This document shows positions 8,821 to 14,911 of a stretch of DNA of 64,000 nt, one piece after another. Positions within the stretch are counted from its first letter, which is position 1. Every line of letters starts with the position of its first letter. The stretch is from an uncultured Clostridia bacterium (lineage in GTDB: Bacteria > Bacillota > Clostridia > TANB77 > CAG-508): positions 51,953 to 115,952 of the forward strand of contig CAOSLI010000002.1 in NCBI GenBank assembly GCA_948524275.1. The letters run 5' to 3'. The notes beneath the pieces were generated by a model, which was given only the letters and a program-made list of their open reading frames with translations, made no database searches and was not told the origin of the DNA. The position numbers and the translations under genes were made by a program.

Positions 8821-10770
8821 TCATCTTCCCCGTCTGCTTAAATCAATTATATAACTAATTGCTTTTGAAAATTCATCTAGTACAACTGTCTTAATTGTAA
8901 TAGGTTTTCCATCAACATAATCATCAATAATTTGCTTTAATTTAACCATATTATCAACTTCTTCTATGATAACTTGTCTATTTTTATTGGCTCTTGTTAA
9001 TAATTTTTCCTTTATAATTACAACATCTTCGTTGCTTGCACAAGATAATCTCTGGAATATTTGATATGGGTCACTATACTTAAATATTGGTATATTCATG
9101 CACTCTTTATCAAATCTATCATAGAATGTTTCCATTTTCATAGGAATATTCTTGAATATCTCTTCTGCTTTTTCTTTATACATCTTATCCTTTAATTGCA
9201 TGTTAAGATCATTAAATCTATCTAAAACCTCATTTAAATCATATTCGCTGTCTTCTACATAAATTGCATCTAATTCTTCACTTGGATTCTCACAATAATC
9301 TGATGTTAGTGATGCAATGTTAAGCCCATTTAAAAAAATGCTTTTCAATGTTCCTTCATCATAAAGTATTAGGTCTTTCTTTACGAAATACATAAAATAT
9401 GCATACATTTTCACTGTATCAATTAGACTTAATTTTCCGTTTCTAACTGAATCTAGTACATCGCTAACAACTTTAGGGAATTCATCATCAGATATCTTCC
9501 AATATTCTTCTGTAAGAAGTCTCTTGTATCCTGGTAAGTTACTTGTATCTATGGTATTTATTATATCTTCCATATCACGTTTAAAAATTTTCATATCAAA
9601 AATTCTTGTACGTACGAATAACTCAATAAATTTAAAGAATCTATATTCTGCTTTAAAGTTATAATAATAGTTGTTGTCAAATTCCTTAATATAGAATTGT
9701 CTGTTATCCATAAATATCCTTGAAGATACAACGATTGACTTATATTCCTCATTATCTTTAACATTTATAAACTTATCCTTTGTAATCTTACCAGCTTTAA
9801 TTTCGAATGAAATAGCTATTGTAAATATAAGCATTGTTTGCAAAATTCTATTGTTAGTATTAGGATATGATTTGCTAACCATGTCAAATACCTTTTTAAA
9901 ATCTGCTAGTGCGTGTTTTAATATTCTAAGATTTCTCGTACCACTTCTTTCAAATGTTGATGTAATAAGCCCTGTATTCGATTTCAAGAATCTAATCAAA
10001 TCAGGATATCTCTCATATCTCATAAGTATTCCATTTATAATATATGTGAACTCTGGTTGATATTCAAATGTTTCACCAACTAATTTTTCCTTAATTCTTT
10101 CGTAGTCATTTGCTTTATCAAATACATCTTCTATTGTATCTTTGATTTTTTCAACCATTGGCTTATCTGTTGTAAGAAGCTTACTCTCTTTATCTAAAAG
10201 GTATGTTGCTATAAATGTTTTCATTTCTATGTTGTTGCTCTTAAGCTTGGTTGAAAGCTCTTTTTCATTACAGATAATAATTGTTTTTATATGGTCATGT
10301 TCAACAAAATTATTGATGTACCCTAAAATATCAATAACATCAACATTAGCCCTCTCCAAGTCATCAAAGCAAAGTACTTTGTCATCTGTTGAAAAGAAAT
10401 TGCCATAGTCAATCTTGTCTCCATTTTGTGTAACGCCAAAGAAGTTAGCCATATCTAGTCCAGTTTTTGCATACTCTGGTATTGTTGTTTGTCCATTAGA
10501 ATCCATGTATTTTTTTAGGTTTTTGTCCATCAATTGAGTTGTTTCAATAAATATCTTTTTGCTTATTTCTTCTAGGTTTGAAATTCCATAAAGTGACATG
10601 TAGATAGTCGTAAGTTCTTTCCCATTTACTTGCATAGACTCTATCTTATTTCTGATTTTATTATTCCAGAAGTATGTTTTACCACTCCCCCACTCACCAT
10701 TTATCATTATTGCGTAGTCTGTATAGTCTGATCTTATGTAGTCTAATATGCTCTCAACTAAATCATCCAT
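8821..10770 (-). CDS. KAP family P-loop NTPase
   Basis: N-terminal GEWGSGKTYFWN Walker A and a CFDDLER Walker B-like motif, typical KAP architecture. 649 aa. Confidence 0.75.
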   Translation of the reverse strand: MDDLVESILDYIRSDYTDYAIMINGEWGSGKTYFWNNKIRNKIESMQVNGKELTTIYMSLYGISNLEEISKKIFIETTQLMDKNLKKYMDSNGQTTIPEYAKTGLDMANFFGVTQNGDKIDYGNFFSTDDKVLCFDDLERANVDVIDILGYINNFVEHDHIKTIIICNEKELSTKLKSNNIEMKTFIATYLLDKESKLLTTDKPMVEKIKDTIEDVFDKANDYERIKEKLVGETFEYQPEFTYIINGILMRYERYPDLIRFLKSNTGLITSTFERSGTRNLRILKHALADFKKVFDMVSKSYPNTNNRILQTMLIFTIAISFEIKAGKITKDKFINVKDNEEYKSIVVSSRIFMDNRQFYIKEFDNNYYYNFKAEYRFFKFIELFVRTRIFDMKIFKRDMEDIINTIDTSNLPGYKRLLTEEYWKISDDEFPKVVSDVLDSVRNGKLSLIDTVKMYAYFMYFVKKDLILYDEGTLKSIFLNGLNIASLTSDYCENPSEELDAIYVEDSEYDLNEVLDRFNDLNMQLKDKMYKEKAEEIFKNIPMKMETFYDRFDKECMNIPIFKYSDPYQIFQRLSCASNEDVVIIKEKLLTRANKNRQVIIEEVDNMVKLKQIIDDYVDGKPITIKTVVLDEFSKAISYIIDLSRRGR

Positions 10771-11510: not shown

Positions 11511-13703
11511 TTATAAATTCGTTAGCTTAAATTTAAGTCCTGTATTTCTCTTTTTAGTATTTACATTGTTAATCATAAAGTCAACAGTACTAGTGTTTCC
11601 TATCATAACTAATCTATTTTTAGCTCTGGTCATTCCTGTATATAAAAGATTTCTTGTAAGTAGCATTGGTGCTGCCTGCATTATTGGAAATATTACTTCA
11701 CCAAATTCACTTCCTTGTGATTTGTGTACTGTAATTGCATATGAGTGTTCAAGTTGTTCTAAATCAGAATATTCATAAAGTGCTATTTTCTCATCATCAA
11801 ATTTTATCTTAATCTTTCCCTCTTCTTTATCTATTTTCTCTATAATTCCCATTTCTCCATTAAATATTCCAGAACTTACTTCATCTTCTCTAATCCACAT
11901 GATATCATAATTATTCTTTGTTTGCATAACCTTGTCACCTTCTCTAAAAATGATATCTCCAAACTTTTTCTCTTGCTTATAATCATTTTCTGGATTGTAT
12001 CTTTCTTGGAGTAATTTGTTTAATACTTTTGTTCCAAGGTCTCCTTTTTTAGTTGGAGTAATTATTTGTGAATCCTTATTATACATATCAATGACCATTT
12101 CTTGCACCTTTATACTGCTTATTTCCGGGATAAAATCAAAATCATCAATGGTACCATCTTCTACTTCATTTCCTTCTTCTAAAAAATTAATTCCATCATT
12201 TACCTTGTGAGAATTTACAATTATTTTGCTTTTTGCGGCTTGTCTAAAAATTTTGTTTAGAGTAATATATGGTACCTTATCTGACTCAATGAAATCTTTC
12301 AAAATGCTTCCTGGTCCAACTGATGGAAGCTGATCTGTATCTCCTACTAAAATAAGTTTTGAACCTTTAAATACTGCTTTTAAAACATAATTCATTAGAA
12401 ACATATCAACCATTGAGACTTCATCTATGATAATTACATCTCCATCTATTGGTGTGACATCTAAATCTGGATTAGGCTTTTCATCACTAAATTTTCCTAT
12501 TTCTAATAATCTGTGCAATGTTTTGGATTCCTTGCCTGTTGCTTCTGTCATTCTTTTTGCAGCTCTACCTGTTGGCGCGCAAAGTACTGTTTTATTACCA
12601 ACAGAATCATATAGTTCTATTATAGTTTTTATAATAGTTGTTTTACCAGTTCCAGGTCCACCAGTTATGATACTTACATTGTTTTCATTTATAAGCTCTA
12701 TTGCTTCTTTTTGCTTATCAGACAAAGTAAGGTCACTTATACTTTTTATTTTGTTATGAATATTGTTAATTTTCTTTATATTTTCAGCTTGCTCTAAGCC
12801 AATTATTCTCTCCGCAATACTCTTCTCTGTTCTATAATATTCTGCTAAGTAAATCCAGTTCATGATACACATTTCAGTCTTACCATCTAAAGTTGCAATT
12901 TCTTCCCTTGCCTCTGTAATAATCTGCTCTCTTGCCCTTAACTCTTTTATTCCATCAATAACATCTTCTTCTGATATTCCTAAAAGTTCTGTTACAAATC
13001 TTATAAGGTTTTCTTCTAGCACACAACAATGTCCATTATATGAAGCTAAATTAAGTGCATGCTTTATTCCACTACCTATTCTCCTCAAGTTGTTTCTCTC
13101 GATTCCAATCTCCAATGCCATTTTATCAATTGCACTAAAATCAACCTTAACACCTAAATCATCTAAAATATAAGGGTCTTCTTCAATCTTATGTACTGTA
13201 TCCTTTCCAAGTTTCTTGTAGATACTCTGAGCACTGCCAGCACTAATTCCAAACTTCTCTAAGAAACCAACTATTTGCCATAATTCCCAATTTTCTATAA
13301 AACTTTCAGAAATTTCTTCTGCTTTTTGCTGTGTGATTCCTTTAATTTGTACTAATTGCTCTGGCTCATACTTTAAAATCTCAATTGTTGCCTCTCCAAA
13401 TTTCTTTACAATCTTTTTAGCTGTAGCTGGTCCTATGCCTTTTATAATTCCGTTTGCAAGGTATTTCTCAATTGCATCCAAGGTTTCTGGCATTATCTTT
13501 TCAAAAGTTTCAACCTTAAATTGCTCTCCATAATCTGGATGTGTAACTACTGTACCAATAACCTTAATATTATCTCCTTTGTCAACAAATGGCATATATC
13601 CTACAATTGTTGTCTCGACTTTACTTCCATATAGATTAGCAATTAGATAACCATTTGATTCGTTTTTATAAATTATGTCTGTTATTTCTCCCTTAAGTTC
13701 CAT
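11511..13703 (-). CDS. recD2: ATP-dependent RecD-like DNA helicase (RecD2/YrrC family)
   Basis: 730 aa with N-terminal HhH region, GGPGTGKTT Walker A, DEVSM Walker B and an SH3-like C-terminus. Confidence 0.88.
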   Translation of the reverse strand: MELKGEITDIIYKNESNGYLIANLYGSKVETTIVGYMPFVDKGDNIKVIGTVVTHPDYGEQFKVETFEKIMPETLDAIEKYLANGIIKGIGPATAKKIVKKFGEATIEILKYEPEQLVQIKGITQQKAEEISESFIENWELWQIVGFLEKFGISAGSAQSIYKKLGKDTVHKIEEDPYILDDLGVKVDFSAIDKMALEIGIERNNLRRIGSGIKHALNLASYNGHCCVLEENLIRFVTELLGISEEDVIDGIKELRAREQIITEAREEIATLDGKTEMCIMNWIYLAEYYRTEKSIAERIIGLEQAENIKKINNIHNKIKSISDLTLSDKQKEAIELINENNVSIITGGPGTGKTTIIKTIIELYDSVGNKTVLCAPTGRAAKRMTEATGKESKTLHRLLEIGKFSDEKPNPDLDVTPIDGDVIIIDEVSMVDMFLMNYVLKAVFKGSKLILVGDTDQLPSVGPGSILKDFIESDKVPYITLNKIFRQAAKSKIIVNSHKVNDGINFLEEGNEVEDGTIDDFDFIPEISSIKVQEMVIDMYNKDSQIITPTKKGDLGTKVLNKLLQERYNPENDYKQEKKFGDIIFREGDKVMQTKNNYDIMWIREDEVSSGIFNGEMGIIEKIDKEEGKIKIKFDDEKIALYEYSDLEQLEHSYAITVHKSQGSEFGEVIFPIMQAAPMLLTRNLLYTGMTRAKNRLVMIGNTSTVDFMINNVNTKKRNTGLKFKLTNL

Positions 13704-13934
13704 CTATCCTCTTTCACTGTGTTAGCATATTGCCAATATTTTTAACACAGAACATCTTATAGTTTTACTTTTGTATTATATAATATTTTACTATTATATT
13801 TCAACTTTTTTGCTTATTTTTTTAATTTTTTTGCTATTATTTGCGCTTCAAACATTGACATATTATGGAAATCAAATTATAATTAGAGCTATCCTTTCTT
13901 ACGAGGAAATCTCTAGGAAGGGAGGTGATGATAT

Positions 13935-14024
13935 ATGTATATTCTTTTGGCACTAAAGATAATGGCTGTTGTGATTGACCTCATAGTTATAGCACTAGAA
14001 TTTTACTTCAATCTACATAAATAG
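13935..14024 (+). CDS. small hydrophobic peptide (29 aa, MYILLALKIMAVVIDLIVIALEFYFNLHK), missed by the 60-aa ORF cutoff
   Basis: Perfect RBS GGAGGTGATGATATATG, its own hairpin terminator, and a paralog at 58746-58832. Confidence 0.55.
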   Translation: MYILLALKIMAVVIDLIVIALEFYFNLHK

Positions 14025-14030
14025 CGAAAG

Positions 14031-14068
14031 AAAAACCTGAGAGGCAATTCTCAGGTTTTTAATTTTTC
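14031..14068 (+). terminator. intrinsic terminator (AAACCTGAGAG-gcaatt-CTCAGGTTT followed by a T-run)
   Basis: Seen directly downstream of the 29-aa ORF. Confidence 0.7.
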
Positions 14069-14185
14069 TTTTCTATGCATATTCTTTTAGTTTATTTAAC
14101 TATAAAGTATTATAGCATAATACATTTTTATATGCAATACTTTTTCTATAATTTTCTAATTTATTTTTATAAAATATACTTGAAA

Positions 14186-14911
14186 TTACTCTGCTGTTTC
14201 TTCTCTCTTTTCTTCGCTTACTTCATTTCGTTCAACTGATAATTCATCTTCTAATTCATTTCCTTCTTTGTTAACTAACTCTAAACTTGCAATTGAAACC
14301 TCATATGCAACTCTAGGCTCTACTGTTCCATCTTCGTGTTTCTTTTCATACATTCTTGATTGAACTCTACCTATTATTTTTACTTCTGTTCCAACTTCCA
14401 TTTTAGAACAAAATCTTGCATTTCTTCCCCATGCTATACATGGTATATAGTCTGATTTATTATAAGCTCTATTTACTGCTAGAAGTATATCTGCAATCTC
14501 TCTTCCAAATGGAGTCTGTCTATATATAGGAGCTTTACATATATATCCTATTAATGTAACTTCATTTGAAACTAAATCTTTACTTGCTACAACTTCTTCA
14601 TCTTGATTTTCTAAAAATTCTATATCTTTAGCAAATACAGTTAATATTAATTTATTTTTTTCGTTTTCATAACTATTATATGATCTGAATTGTCCCTTTA
14701 CACTGATTTTTGCGTCTATTTTTAATTCGTCTTCTTTAAATAATCTTTCTGAAATTGTAATTGGTATTATATCTGCATTTCCGCTAAGTCTTGGTACACT
14801 TAGGTTAAAGCTATAAAATTTCTCGCCATATATTTCATGACTAAATTTCTTCTCCTCTGTAATTTTTCCTACTAATACTAAATTATTGTTCTCTAAAAAA
14901 TTTGTTTCCAA
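14186..14911 (-). CDS. SSB-like protein with two tandem OB folds and an acidic C-terminal tail
   Basis: Both halves follow the SSB pattern (V.L.G.I....F..NL.V.R.......I.....A.........G..V...G......Y). Acidic tail EDELSVERNEVSEEKREETAE lacks the terminal DIPF. Confidence 0.5.
   Translation of the reverse strand: METNFLENNNLVLVGKITEEKKFSHEIYGEKFYSFNLSVPRLSGNADIIPITISERLFKEDELKIDAKISVKGQFRSYNSYENEKNKLILTVFAKDIEFLENQDEEVVASKDLVSNEVTLIGYICKAPIYRQTPFGREIADILLAVNRAYNKSDYIPCIAWGRNARFCSKMEVGTEVKIIGRVQSRMYEKKHEDGTVEPRVAYEVSIASLELVNKEGNELEDELSVERNEVSEEKREETAE

Follow-up and report, generated by a model that had tools for sequence, protein, structure and literature searches.

What is the role of two very short hydrophobic reading frames, each equipped with expression signals of its own, that lie at unrelated places in the genome of an uncultured Clostridia bacterium? 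The question arises from a 64,000-nucleotide (nt) stretch of contig CAOSLI010000002.1, the whole of which is called the window below, for which a preliminary description had pointed to two paralogous peptides of about 29 amino acids and likened them to type I toxins or small membrane regulators. Here, we describe a computational follow-up in which these open reading frames (ORFs) and their surroundings are best described, on sequence evidence, as toxin-antitoxin modules of type I and of the par design that make up a new family in uncultured gut Clostridia, with three mutually orthogonal copies in the window. Each locus is probably a self-contained module on the par plan, that is, a small putative membrane toxin whose translation would be blocked by a convergently transcribed antisense RNA. 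The original likening to type I toxin peptides or small membrane regulators thereby gains computational support of three kinds, namely an antisense promoter, complementarity that co-varies with its target and conservation of the reading frame itself.

The two reading frames share an entire regulatory module

ORF 1 (13935..14024, plus strand) encodes the 29-amino-acid peptide MYILLALKIMAVVIDLIVIALEFYFNLHK, a putative toxin, and ORF 2 (58746..58832, plus strand) the 28-amino-acid peptide MFFLYILKIIAIIIDSIILILEFHENNN, both of them hydrophobic and of what is called here the LKI type. The two align without gaps at 46% identity, with L4, L7, K8, I9, A11, I14, D15, I17, L21, E22, F23 and N26 common to both, and reciprocal tblastn searches of the window with one peptide recover the other at E=6e-6, which bears out the paralogy first proposed. 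The next-best match has an E value of 0.087, and the window therefore holds exactly two copies of this peptide type; a pattern that specified only the Shine-Dalgarno (SD) sequence, the ATG and the K, A, D and E positions found these two sites alone, with 0.00 expected. The SD sequence ends 8 nt before the ATG in each case and reads AGGAGGT at locus 2, as had been given for both, but GGGAGGT at locus 1 (13920-13926). Terminators of their own had also been claimed, and both hairpins are present where 0.1-0.2 would be expected in shuffled sequence. Locus 2 does follow alr, starting 15 nt past its stop codon, but locus 1, which had been placed after recD2, is intergenic, with the SSB gene (14186-14911) on one side and the start of recD2 (11511-13703) on the other, both genes being on the minus strand.

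The likeness between the loci had been noted for the peptides, where it holds, but it is not confined to them. Homology covers a whole module of ~290 nt, and an alignment of ~420 nt around the ORFs shows four shared places: the promoter, a leader of the form ATCCTT...AGGAAATCT...GGAGGT, the terminator and a downstream block, TATAGCATA...TGCAATACTTTTT. All of this lies in a window of 30% G+C, and neither ORF is called as a gene in assembly GCA_950022725.1. The ORF 2 peptide is identical in three other assemblies or sequencing runs, and a second assembly with the same SSB gene has an intergenic region that is 100% identical, for which reason no presence/absence boundary can be drawn for module 1.

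Antisense complementarity co-varies with the initiation region

Relatives were sought in one genome per species with a pattern that required an SD sequence, an ATG, the K/R, A, D/E and D/E positions and a T at the second base of hydrophobic codons. A version lacking the alanine codon had returned 15 matches in viral contigs that were noise or unrelated small ORFs, and the version with alanine was therefore the one used for the genome scan. Of its 20 matches, one was noise from a Flavobacterium and 19 were ORFs of the LKI family, 26-30 amino acids long, whose hosts are uncultured Clostridia, Clostridium or Eubacteriales metagenome-assembled genomes (MAGs) of 24-34% G+C. Promoter-like and terminator-like sites were identified from the sequence, as were the probable ends of the antisense transcripts.

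One order of elements is common to all 21 LKI-type loci, namely promoter, leader, SD, ORF, a GC-rich hairpin 5-10 nt past the stop codon, a repeat of the start region and a minus-strand promoter. The preliminary description had suggested looking for an antisense promoter, and this convergent promoter is indeed found 69-89 nt past the stop codon in 21/21 loci, composed of TTGACA or TTGCAT, a spacer of 17-18 nt and, usually, TGnTATAAT. The codons at the N-terminus vary by locus (MFF, MLL, MSL, MTL, MYIL, MIF and others), with matching changes in the downstream repeat. The 5' part of each predicted antisense RNA pairs with its own initiation region at a mean of -20.3 kcal/mol, against -11.2 for those of other loci, and the cognate target comes first in 19 of the 21. 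When only the 12 non-redundant loci are compared, cognate pairs average -20.15 kcal/mol and permuted pairs -10.64 +/- 1.10, a difference that none of 20,000 permutations reaches; here the cognate ranks first every time, with the paired positions centred on the AUG to about +11.

A second, independent repeat concerns the spacer between the SD and the AUG, which recurs just past the stop codon (GCAAGC, GCAAAAC, GTAAAGC, GCAACAC; GGTAAAAT at window locus 2). The pairing of this spacer with the 3' tail of the predicted antisense RNA amounts to -9.24 kcal/mol against -5.66 +/- 0.52 for permuted pairs, and again 0/20,000 permutations reach it. As the repeats lie on both sides of the hairpin, the antisense RNA would be a complement of the ribosome-binding site (RBS) interrupted by its own terminator hairpin.

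Within the window, the antisense RNA predicted for module 1 forms a 17-bp duplex with its start region at -20.0 kcal/mol (0/500 shuffles reach this; -8.9 and -6.2 with the two other targets) and that of module 2 a 13-bp duplex at -13.8 kcal/mol (3/500 shuffles; -8.5 and -6.5). For a third module, described below, pairing runs from the 3' end of the SD to codon 6 at -30.1 kcal/mol (0/500 shuffles; -10.3 and -12.8). For each of the three, the margin in favour of the cognate target is 5-20 kcal/mol. In module 2 the predicted antisense RNA also has a 3' tail, AUUUUACC, that pairs with GGUAAAAU between SD and AUG (-8.2 kcal/mol; 18/500 shuffles reach this). In the folds of the predicted antisense RNAs the 5' segment complementary to the target is left unpaired ahead of the terminator hairpin. 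An antisense RNA complementary to the mRNA of the putative toxin, the criterion for a type I system, is in this way predicted.

A predicted leader stem over the Shine-Dalgarno sequence

In minimum-energy folds of the full mRNA the 5'-terminal UCCUU(U) pairs with the AAGGA of the SD, and this outer helix encloses an inner stem with a GAAAU loop; the probability that the SD is unpaired is 0.05-0.35 (0.27 in module 1). RNAalifold, applied to MAFFT alignments, returned the terminator stem in the antisense RNA and, in the leader, only a 5-bp proximal hairpin, and the two-tier leader was therefore tested as a named structure. Across 16 loci, 92.5% of the cells of the outer helix UCCUU:AAGGA are paired; in the inner helix, double-sided changes are seen in 10 cells (UUCAAG/CUUGAA, GAG/CUC, UGAG/CUCA), as many as are reached by 8 of 500 shuffles. 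There is thus moderate support for a leader stem that would cover the SD. The predicted folds place the extreme 5' end within the leader stem, and the sequences of the terminator loops are not uniform by eye.

The reading frame of the putative peptide is conserved

The family consensus is M.L.KILLKI.AIVVD.IILVIEIIENLHK, in which L7, K8, A11 and D15 (window numbering) are invariant and I9, I12 and E22 nearly so. The in-frame ATG, the length, the stop codon and the C-terminal E-I-I-E-N-L-H-K are conserved although the scan pattern did not demand them, and the two other forward frames carry stops in all 21 loci. A further, ORF-agnostic scan of metagenomes used a leader-only pattern that ended ahead of the ATG. 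Among its 37 matches were six distinct loci carrying the LKI family with intact ORFs of 28-30 amino acids, including variants that the first pattern would miss (D15N; D15E with E22D; an AWLHK tail). Over a 17-codon core of these six loci and the two window copies, the ratio of non-synonymous to synonymous substitution (dN/dS) is ~0.45. An ORF of 26-30 codons is thus intact in 19 other species and in six metagenome loci found without reference to it; given this and the dN/dS value, conservation is not of the DNA only, the outcome that the preliminary description had named as telling against a peptide.

The peptides of the family have the small size (<60 amino acids), the hydrophobicity and the predicted transmembrane helix of type I toxins, with 26-30 residues and a grand average of hydropathy of 1.3-1.9. 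On a helical wheel, the consensus residues K5, K9, D16, E23, E26, N27 and K30 fall within ~100 degrees and the rest of the 30-residue helix is hydrophobic. The hydrophobic moment of the consensus is 1.45, against 1.18 for TisB.

Two features of the coding DNA stand apart from the above. One reverse-strand frame across the ORF is open in 15 of the 21 LKI-type loci, which probably follows from the richness of this AT-rich DNA in NTN codons. The final codons of the ORFs, AAC TTA CAT AAA TAG (N-L-H-K-stop), are unusually conserved as DNA, for example at window positions 14010-14030. In the antisense RNA their complement, CUAUUUAUG, would provide the U-rich stretch that follows the hairpin, so that termination of this RNA may constrain the C-terminus of the peptide in addition to protein function.

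By exact look-up, four relatives of 30 amino acids occur in a collection of 15 billion proteins, only as unnamed singleton clusters, and the window peptides do not occur there. A HMMER search with the ORF extended to 30 amino acids gave nothing at E<=0.001, a result that is uninformative for so short a query. Neither the strict back-translated pattern nor the SD..K-A-D-E pattern matched in viral contigs, and annotated plasmids and phages yielded no match to a family member by tblastn, although the low-complexity filter of BLAST may hide such peptides. The loosest pattern did match viral contigs (L004:385, L011:1414; L014, L016), at ORFs for a 28-amino-acid peptide, MLPKSSNYLSKVVIFLIEILVFIIDKAF, and for peptides of 25-37 amino acids, MQRYLMVKLILILLEQIMVF..., that are outside the LKI family. 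The flanking genes differ in every genome that carries a module, and a synteny check found no homologs of RecD2, SSB, Alr or DUF5052 beside related modules.

A third module and other peptides on the same scaffold

A third module, at 53994-54308 between rpsU and a gene for an AAA_14/DUF4143 ATPase, came to light through 27 nt that match the antisense promoter block. The count of two copies made at the outset is thus right for the LKI peptide but overlooked a third module of the same design, and an ORF-independent scan for the signature (SD, small ORF, convergent promoter) finds exactly three modules in the window. A 13-nt match to the same promoter block lies at 24709-24721, with no module around it. 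The peptide of module 3 belongs to a different, 'LIW' group of 28-31 amino acids, M[ST]S[YF][DE]LIW[RI]L..., whose members end in a long tail that is acidic or polar. In module 3 and the other LIW-type loci two back-to-back terminators take the place of the one shared hairpin.

The LIW group was also among the ORFs preceded by the same leader in the metagenome scan, together with hydrophobic peptides of 22-23 amino acids with acidic ends, such as MHSLIKLLVLVIVYLIIKDDED. These non-LKI loci (within L039-L075, e.g. L039:2038, L055:3744, L063:2568, L074:4339) have the same downstream anatomy, and for the other small ORFs on the scaffold cognate pairing averages -27.3 kcal/mol against -14.4, with the cognate at rank 1 in 12/13. 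In uncultured low-GC gut Clostridia the scaffold therefore carries at least three mutually dissimilar types of peptide, with either one shared or two separate terminators, which suggests a single RNA scaffold with exchangeable or fast-diverging peptides. The leader pattern also precedes a longer ORF (MKRMSSNPAMRDAAFEHNRR..., with (E/Q)GIEKGI repeats) in contigs of ~50% G+C (L042, L045 at 10340-10700, L054 and L059-L061); these higher-GC matches are probably due to chance or to an unrelated use of a similar SD context.

Modules also occur in tandem, with two or three copies within ~1 kb (L031:7086-7900; L028, minus strand, ~5657-6022; L030:946-1400), a typical arrangement for type I loci (PMC2887945). 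In L031, the reading frame of the middle copy (ATG at 7452) stops prematurely, as MFF*, owing to one extra T in a T-run; this may reflect a pseudogene, an error in sequencing or a switch by phase variation.

A bolder idea, which we put forward tentatively and regard as somewhat more likely to be wrong than right, is that the heritable unit is not the toxin but the RNA scaffold, consisting of the anti-SD leader, the split-complement antisense RNA beginning AGCUUAAGC and the convergent promoters at fixed spacing. Were peptides indeed swapped on a common chassis with several orthogonal copies per genome, the modules would be natural, portable and insulated antisense switches, in which an antitoxin RNA clamps the RBS from both sides of its own terminator hairpin.

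Comparison with characterized type I systems

Loci of the par type are recognized by convergent promoters, a shared bidirectional terminator, a pair of direct repeats, a 5' stem-loop covering the SD and an upstream helix (PMC7472228). Here, the convergent promoters are present at the level of sequence, a single GC-rich hairpin serves as the shared terminator in modules 1 and 2 and all LKI-type relatives, and direct repeats lie at the initiation site, although the second repeat is unsupported for module 1. The fourth feature, the 5' stem-loop over the SD, is probably present too. The predicted layout matches both the definition of a par-like locus (PMC7472228) and the Fst/RNAII-SprA1 class of T1TAdb (PMC8594479).

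Like the modules described here, par of Enterococcus faecalis plasmid pAD1 (Fst RNA I/RNA II) has a single-helix toxin of ~30 amino acids and exists in multiple chromosomal copies (PMC7472228). In both, direct repeats in the DNA make the two RNAs complementary at the toxin initiation site. RNA II of par carries both repeats in its 5' part, which agrees with the published description (PMC7472228), whereas here one lies beyond the terminator, so that the antisense RNA would clamp its target with its 5' part and its 3' tail. No U-turn loop motif is established for the Clostridia RNAs, the hosts are uncultured low-GC Clostridia, and the peptide has neither the conserved Trp, the PXXXG(C) motif and the highly charged tail of Fst nor any similarity to it at the level of hidden Markov models or profiles. 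The Trp of the Fst/Ldr family is absent in 18-19 of 20 aligned members, being present in L024 (...DLWHE) and L050/51 (L050 ...AWLHK); no member of the 20 contains Gly or Pro, and the P/D/S/T-XXX-G(C) motif is therefore absent; and the tail E-I-I-E-N-L-H-K is only mildly charged, unlike that of Fst/Ldr.

SprA1/SprA1AS of Staphylococcus aureus resembles the modules in its cis antisense RNA encoded on the 3' side, whose non-overlapping region blocks initiation, and in its membrane peptide of ~30 amino acids (PMC8594479); it differs in that this peptide, PepA1, is of the Fst family, with PXXXGC and Trp, and is encoded on a pathogenicity island. A similar antisense position is known from txpA/RatA and bsrG/SR4 of Bacillus subtilis, Gram-positive systems with a convergent, 3'-overlapping antisense RNA and an SD sequestered in the toxin mRNA. 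In those systems the 3' part of the ORF is covered by the antisense RNA, which acts mainly through this overlap by promoting mRNA decay, whereas here the overlap comprises the terminator only (and is lacking in module 3) and the repeats provide complementarity at the initiation region.

The charge pattern of the peptide recalls TisB of the Escherichia coli tisB/istR-1 system, a 29-residue helix with a narrow stripe of alternating charges, for which antiparallel dimers and narrow proton-conducting pores have been proposed (PMC8309996). The Clostridia consensus likewise has its charges in a narrow stripe, a likeness of design and not of descent. The two peptides show no homology, and TisB is under SOS control and is repressed by a divergent, trans-acting small RNA at a standby site, with no convergent RNA sharing a terminator. 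In Clostridia, the only type I systems studied by experiment are those of Clostridioides difficile (e.g. CD2517.1-RCd8, CD0977.1-RCd11), in which small membrane toxins are likewise paired with antisense RNA antitoxins and several copies exist (PMC6563280). Their toxins are 34-59 amino acids long and show no sequence similarity to the present family, and the loci are situated within prophages or beside CRISPR arrays and often have Sigma B promoters (PMC6563280), whereas the peptides here have 26-31 amino acids, sigma-A-type promoters and, among the viral contigs searched, no copies.

No family in NCBIfam or PHROGs matches the peptide. At the gathering score Rfam reports only two tRNAs in the window (genes at 31185-31361, minus strand) and nothing for the three modules; in a permissive scan the best matches to antitoxin RNAs are OhsC (18.9/50 bits) and RatA (20/49 bits). 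The motifs of the family were not found in the searchable literature, a comparison that did not extend to the ~2000 predicted toxins of Fozo et al. 2010 or to T1TAdb.

Proposed mechanism and alternative readings

A constitutive-looking promoter would give rise to an mRNA of ~175 nt whose 5' end would fold back on the SD and which would encode a membrane peptide of 28-30 amino acids. A second promoter, on the other strand and 70-90 nt past the stop codon, would produce an antisense RNA of ~75 nt that runs into the same hairpin terminator and that, by virtue of the two direct repeats in the DNA, would be complementary to the initiation region without overlapping it. Its single-stranded 5' part would pair with the AUG and the next 10-15 nt and its 3' tail, the complement of the sequence after the stop codon, with the spacer between SD and AUG; this binding would block ribosome entry, and the complementary terminator stem-loops would offer a further contact. 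A shortfall of antisense RNA would allow the peptide to be made and to insert into the membrane, where the stripe formed by K5, K9, D16, E23, E26 and K30 suggests, by analogy with the proposal for TisB, oligomers that leak protons or ions. We infer from the sequence that both RNAs are made, where they end, that their pairing blocks translation and that the peptide is toxic.

Several observations weigh against this picture. The antisense -35 boxes of both window copies have only 3/6 consensus positions, for which reason that of module 1 was missed by the promoter scan; the two promoters are backed by their extended -10 elements and by a perfect TTGACA at the same position in about half of the relatives. 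The module 2 duplex has only 13 bp, the tail pairing of module 1 is no better than chance (411/500 shuffles reach it) and the leader of locus 2 is no more stable than shuffled sequence (z -0.57). In many relatives the U-tract after the hairpin is imperfect in the minus direction, which makes the 3' end of the antisense RNA and its tail uncertain. At the protein level, a search with 20 members found no Pfam family at E up to 10 other than a chance match to Glycophorin_A (0.55), no PDB chain was found at E up to 10 even though structures of Fst and PepA1 are deposited, and hhalign gave 1.7% for Fst, 0.5% for PepA1 and 6.1% for TisB. Many type I systems are housed on phages, plasmids or viral contigs, but the searches of these returned no copy. 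The near-invariance of the second codon position in LKI-type ORFs is partly circular, since the scan pattern forced hydrophobic codons, which is why dN/dS was computed on the ORF-agnostic set, and the value of 0.45 is only moderate. As toxicity, transcription and translation are predicted, the support is computational throughout.

The same antisense-controlled module could instead set the level of a non-toxic small membrane protein, such as one that forms part of, or regulates, a transporter or sensor. Toxicity is, after all, only inferred, the modules are chromosomal, with none found on phages or plasmids, and the strictly conserved intramembrane K, D and E could equally mark an interface between proteins. 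A dedicated accessory subunit would, however, sit poorly with unrelated genomic contexts that include no conserved partner gene, with several orthogonal copies per genome, tandem clusters and a frameshifted copy, and with at least three dissimilar peptides on one scaffold, which are traits of selfish or addictive type I loci; and the layout has so far been described only for toxin loci (PMC7472228, PMC8594479). We therefore consider this reading rather unlikely. That the peptide and scaffold descend from a par-like ancestor, making the peptide a true but highly diverged member of the Fst/Ldr family, is very unlikely in our estimation: the regulatory architecture agrees with par point by point, Fst-like toxins are reported in Clostridiales (PMC2887945, PMC7472228), two relatives (L024, L050) have a Trp near the C-terminus and peptides this short lose detectable similarity fast, but the Pfam, PDB and hhalign results above speak against such descent, as do the lack of Gly and Pro, the missing Trp in most aligned members and the mildly charged C-terminus.

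The reading that grants the ORF least takes it to be incidental to intergenic promoter and terminator repeats that serve alr, ssb and recD2, or to a non-coding RNA pair. It draws on the richness of AT-rich intergenic DNA in promoter-like sites, of which 4-5 are expected per 600 nt, and on the absence of terminators proper to alr and ssb, which the module hairpins probably serve, but it leaves unexplained why 19 species, as well as the loci of the ORF-agnostic set, retain the SD, an in-frame ATG, the ORF length and the stop codon. The core of the ORF lies outside the antisense overlap and the repeats and is conserved nonetheless, with synonymous changes and the dN/dS noted above; moreover, the flanking genes differ per genome and the co-variation is aimed specifically at the RBS. 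This possibility is almost certainly wrong. Three other candidates were rejected: a leader peptide or attenuator, as nothing lies downstream and the ORF has its own terminator; a bacteriocin or quorum peptide, as there are no processing or export genes and no leader; and a miniature inverted-repeat transposable element or repetitive extragenic palindrome, as there are no terminal inverted repeats and functional signals occur in fixed order.

If the toxin-antitoxin interpretation is right, a family absent from Pfam, NCBIfam, Rfam, PHROGs and the gene calls of its carrier genomes extends the par-type regulatory design beyond toxins of the Fst type. The comparative evidence for it is unusually clean, with two independent pairs of repeats that co-vary with the RBS over dozens of loci. 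The antisense/target pairs are naturally orthogonal, three of them within 64 kb, and might be used as post-transcriptional switches, and the strictly conserved K-D-E stripe makes the peptide a subject for the study of how minimal helices breach membranes. For annotation, the ORFs of 28-30 amino acids and the RNAs of ~75 nt should be called in these MAGs.

Coordinates of the modules and their neighbours

Table 1. Features of the three modules in the window, with positions counted from its first letter; promoters, terminators and RNAs are predictions.
Module	Feature	Position	Strand	Remarks
1	mRNA promoter, TTGACA-17-TATAAT	13855..13883	+	12/12 consensus; aligns with the module 2 promoter
1	Leader, two-tier stem-loop, 5' UCCUUUCUU pairing with the SD region AGGAAGGGA	13891..13926	+	Minimum free energy -14.6 kcal/mol, z -2.06
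1	Peptide ORF, 29 amino acids	13935..14024	+	Putative toxin
1	Hairpin terminator	14031..14060	both	13 pairs and T-run; 12-nt perfect arms; A-run before
1	Direct repeat, TATG(T/C)ATATTCTTTT	13934-13948 (over start codon), 14074..14088	+	93% identity, spacing 140
1	Predicted antisense RNA, ~80 nt	14022..14102	-	Ends predicted; fold z -3.85
1	Antisense promoter, TTGCAT-17-TGcTATAAT	14109..14137	-	Position conserved in 21/21 loci
2	mRNA promoter, TTTACA-17-TATTAT (TGtTATTAT, extended -10)	58669..58697	+	
2	Leader, UCCUU ... CAAG-GAAAU-CUUG ... AAGGA with SD AGGAGGT	58704..58737	+	Two-tier fold, -7.9 kcal/mol
2	Peptide ORF, 28 amino acids	58746..58832	+	
2	Shared hairpin terminator	58838..58867 (hairpin 58842-58863)	both	9 pairs, 6 GC
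2	Direct repeat, ATGTTCTTTTTAT	58746-58758 (over start codon), 58875..58887	+	100% identity, spacing 129
2	Predicted antisense RNA, ~73 nt	58828..58900	-	Fold z -4.17
2	Antisense promoter, TTGCAC-17-TGcTATATT	58907..58935	-	-10 box also in promoter scan
3	mRNA promoter, TAGACA-17-TATAAT	54308-54280	-	Followed by leader hairpin
3	SD, AAGGAGG	54245-54239	-	
3	LIW-type ORF, 29 amino acids, MSSYELIWRLIVLLLLSDDNSENQDNKKE	54229-54140	-	
3	Terminator of the peptide mRNA	54105..54131	-	From sequence and fold
3	Antisense promoter, TTGCAT-17-TATAAT	53994-54022	+	
3	Predicted antisense RNA, ~70 nt, AGCUAGCAAGCUUAAAGGAACUCAAAAUUUAAGUUUGUACC with hairpin and U7	~54030-54099	+	Own terminator; z -4.88

Two of the neighbouring genes run towards the modules. 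The alr gene ends at 58654 with no terminator ahead of the module 2 promoter (58654-58669), and the ssb gene ends at 14186 with none ahead of the module 1 antisense promoter (14147-14186); since neither has a terminator of its own, the module hairpins probably terminate these genes as well. Transcription continuing past the end of alr would add to the sense, putative toxin-encoding transcript of module 2, and transcription continuing past ssb to the antisense transcript of module 1.

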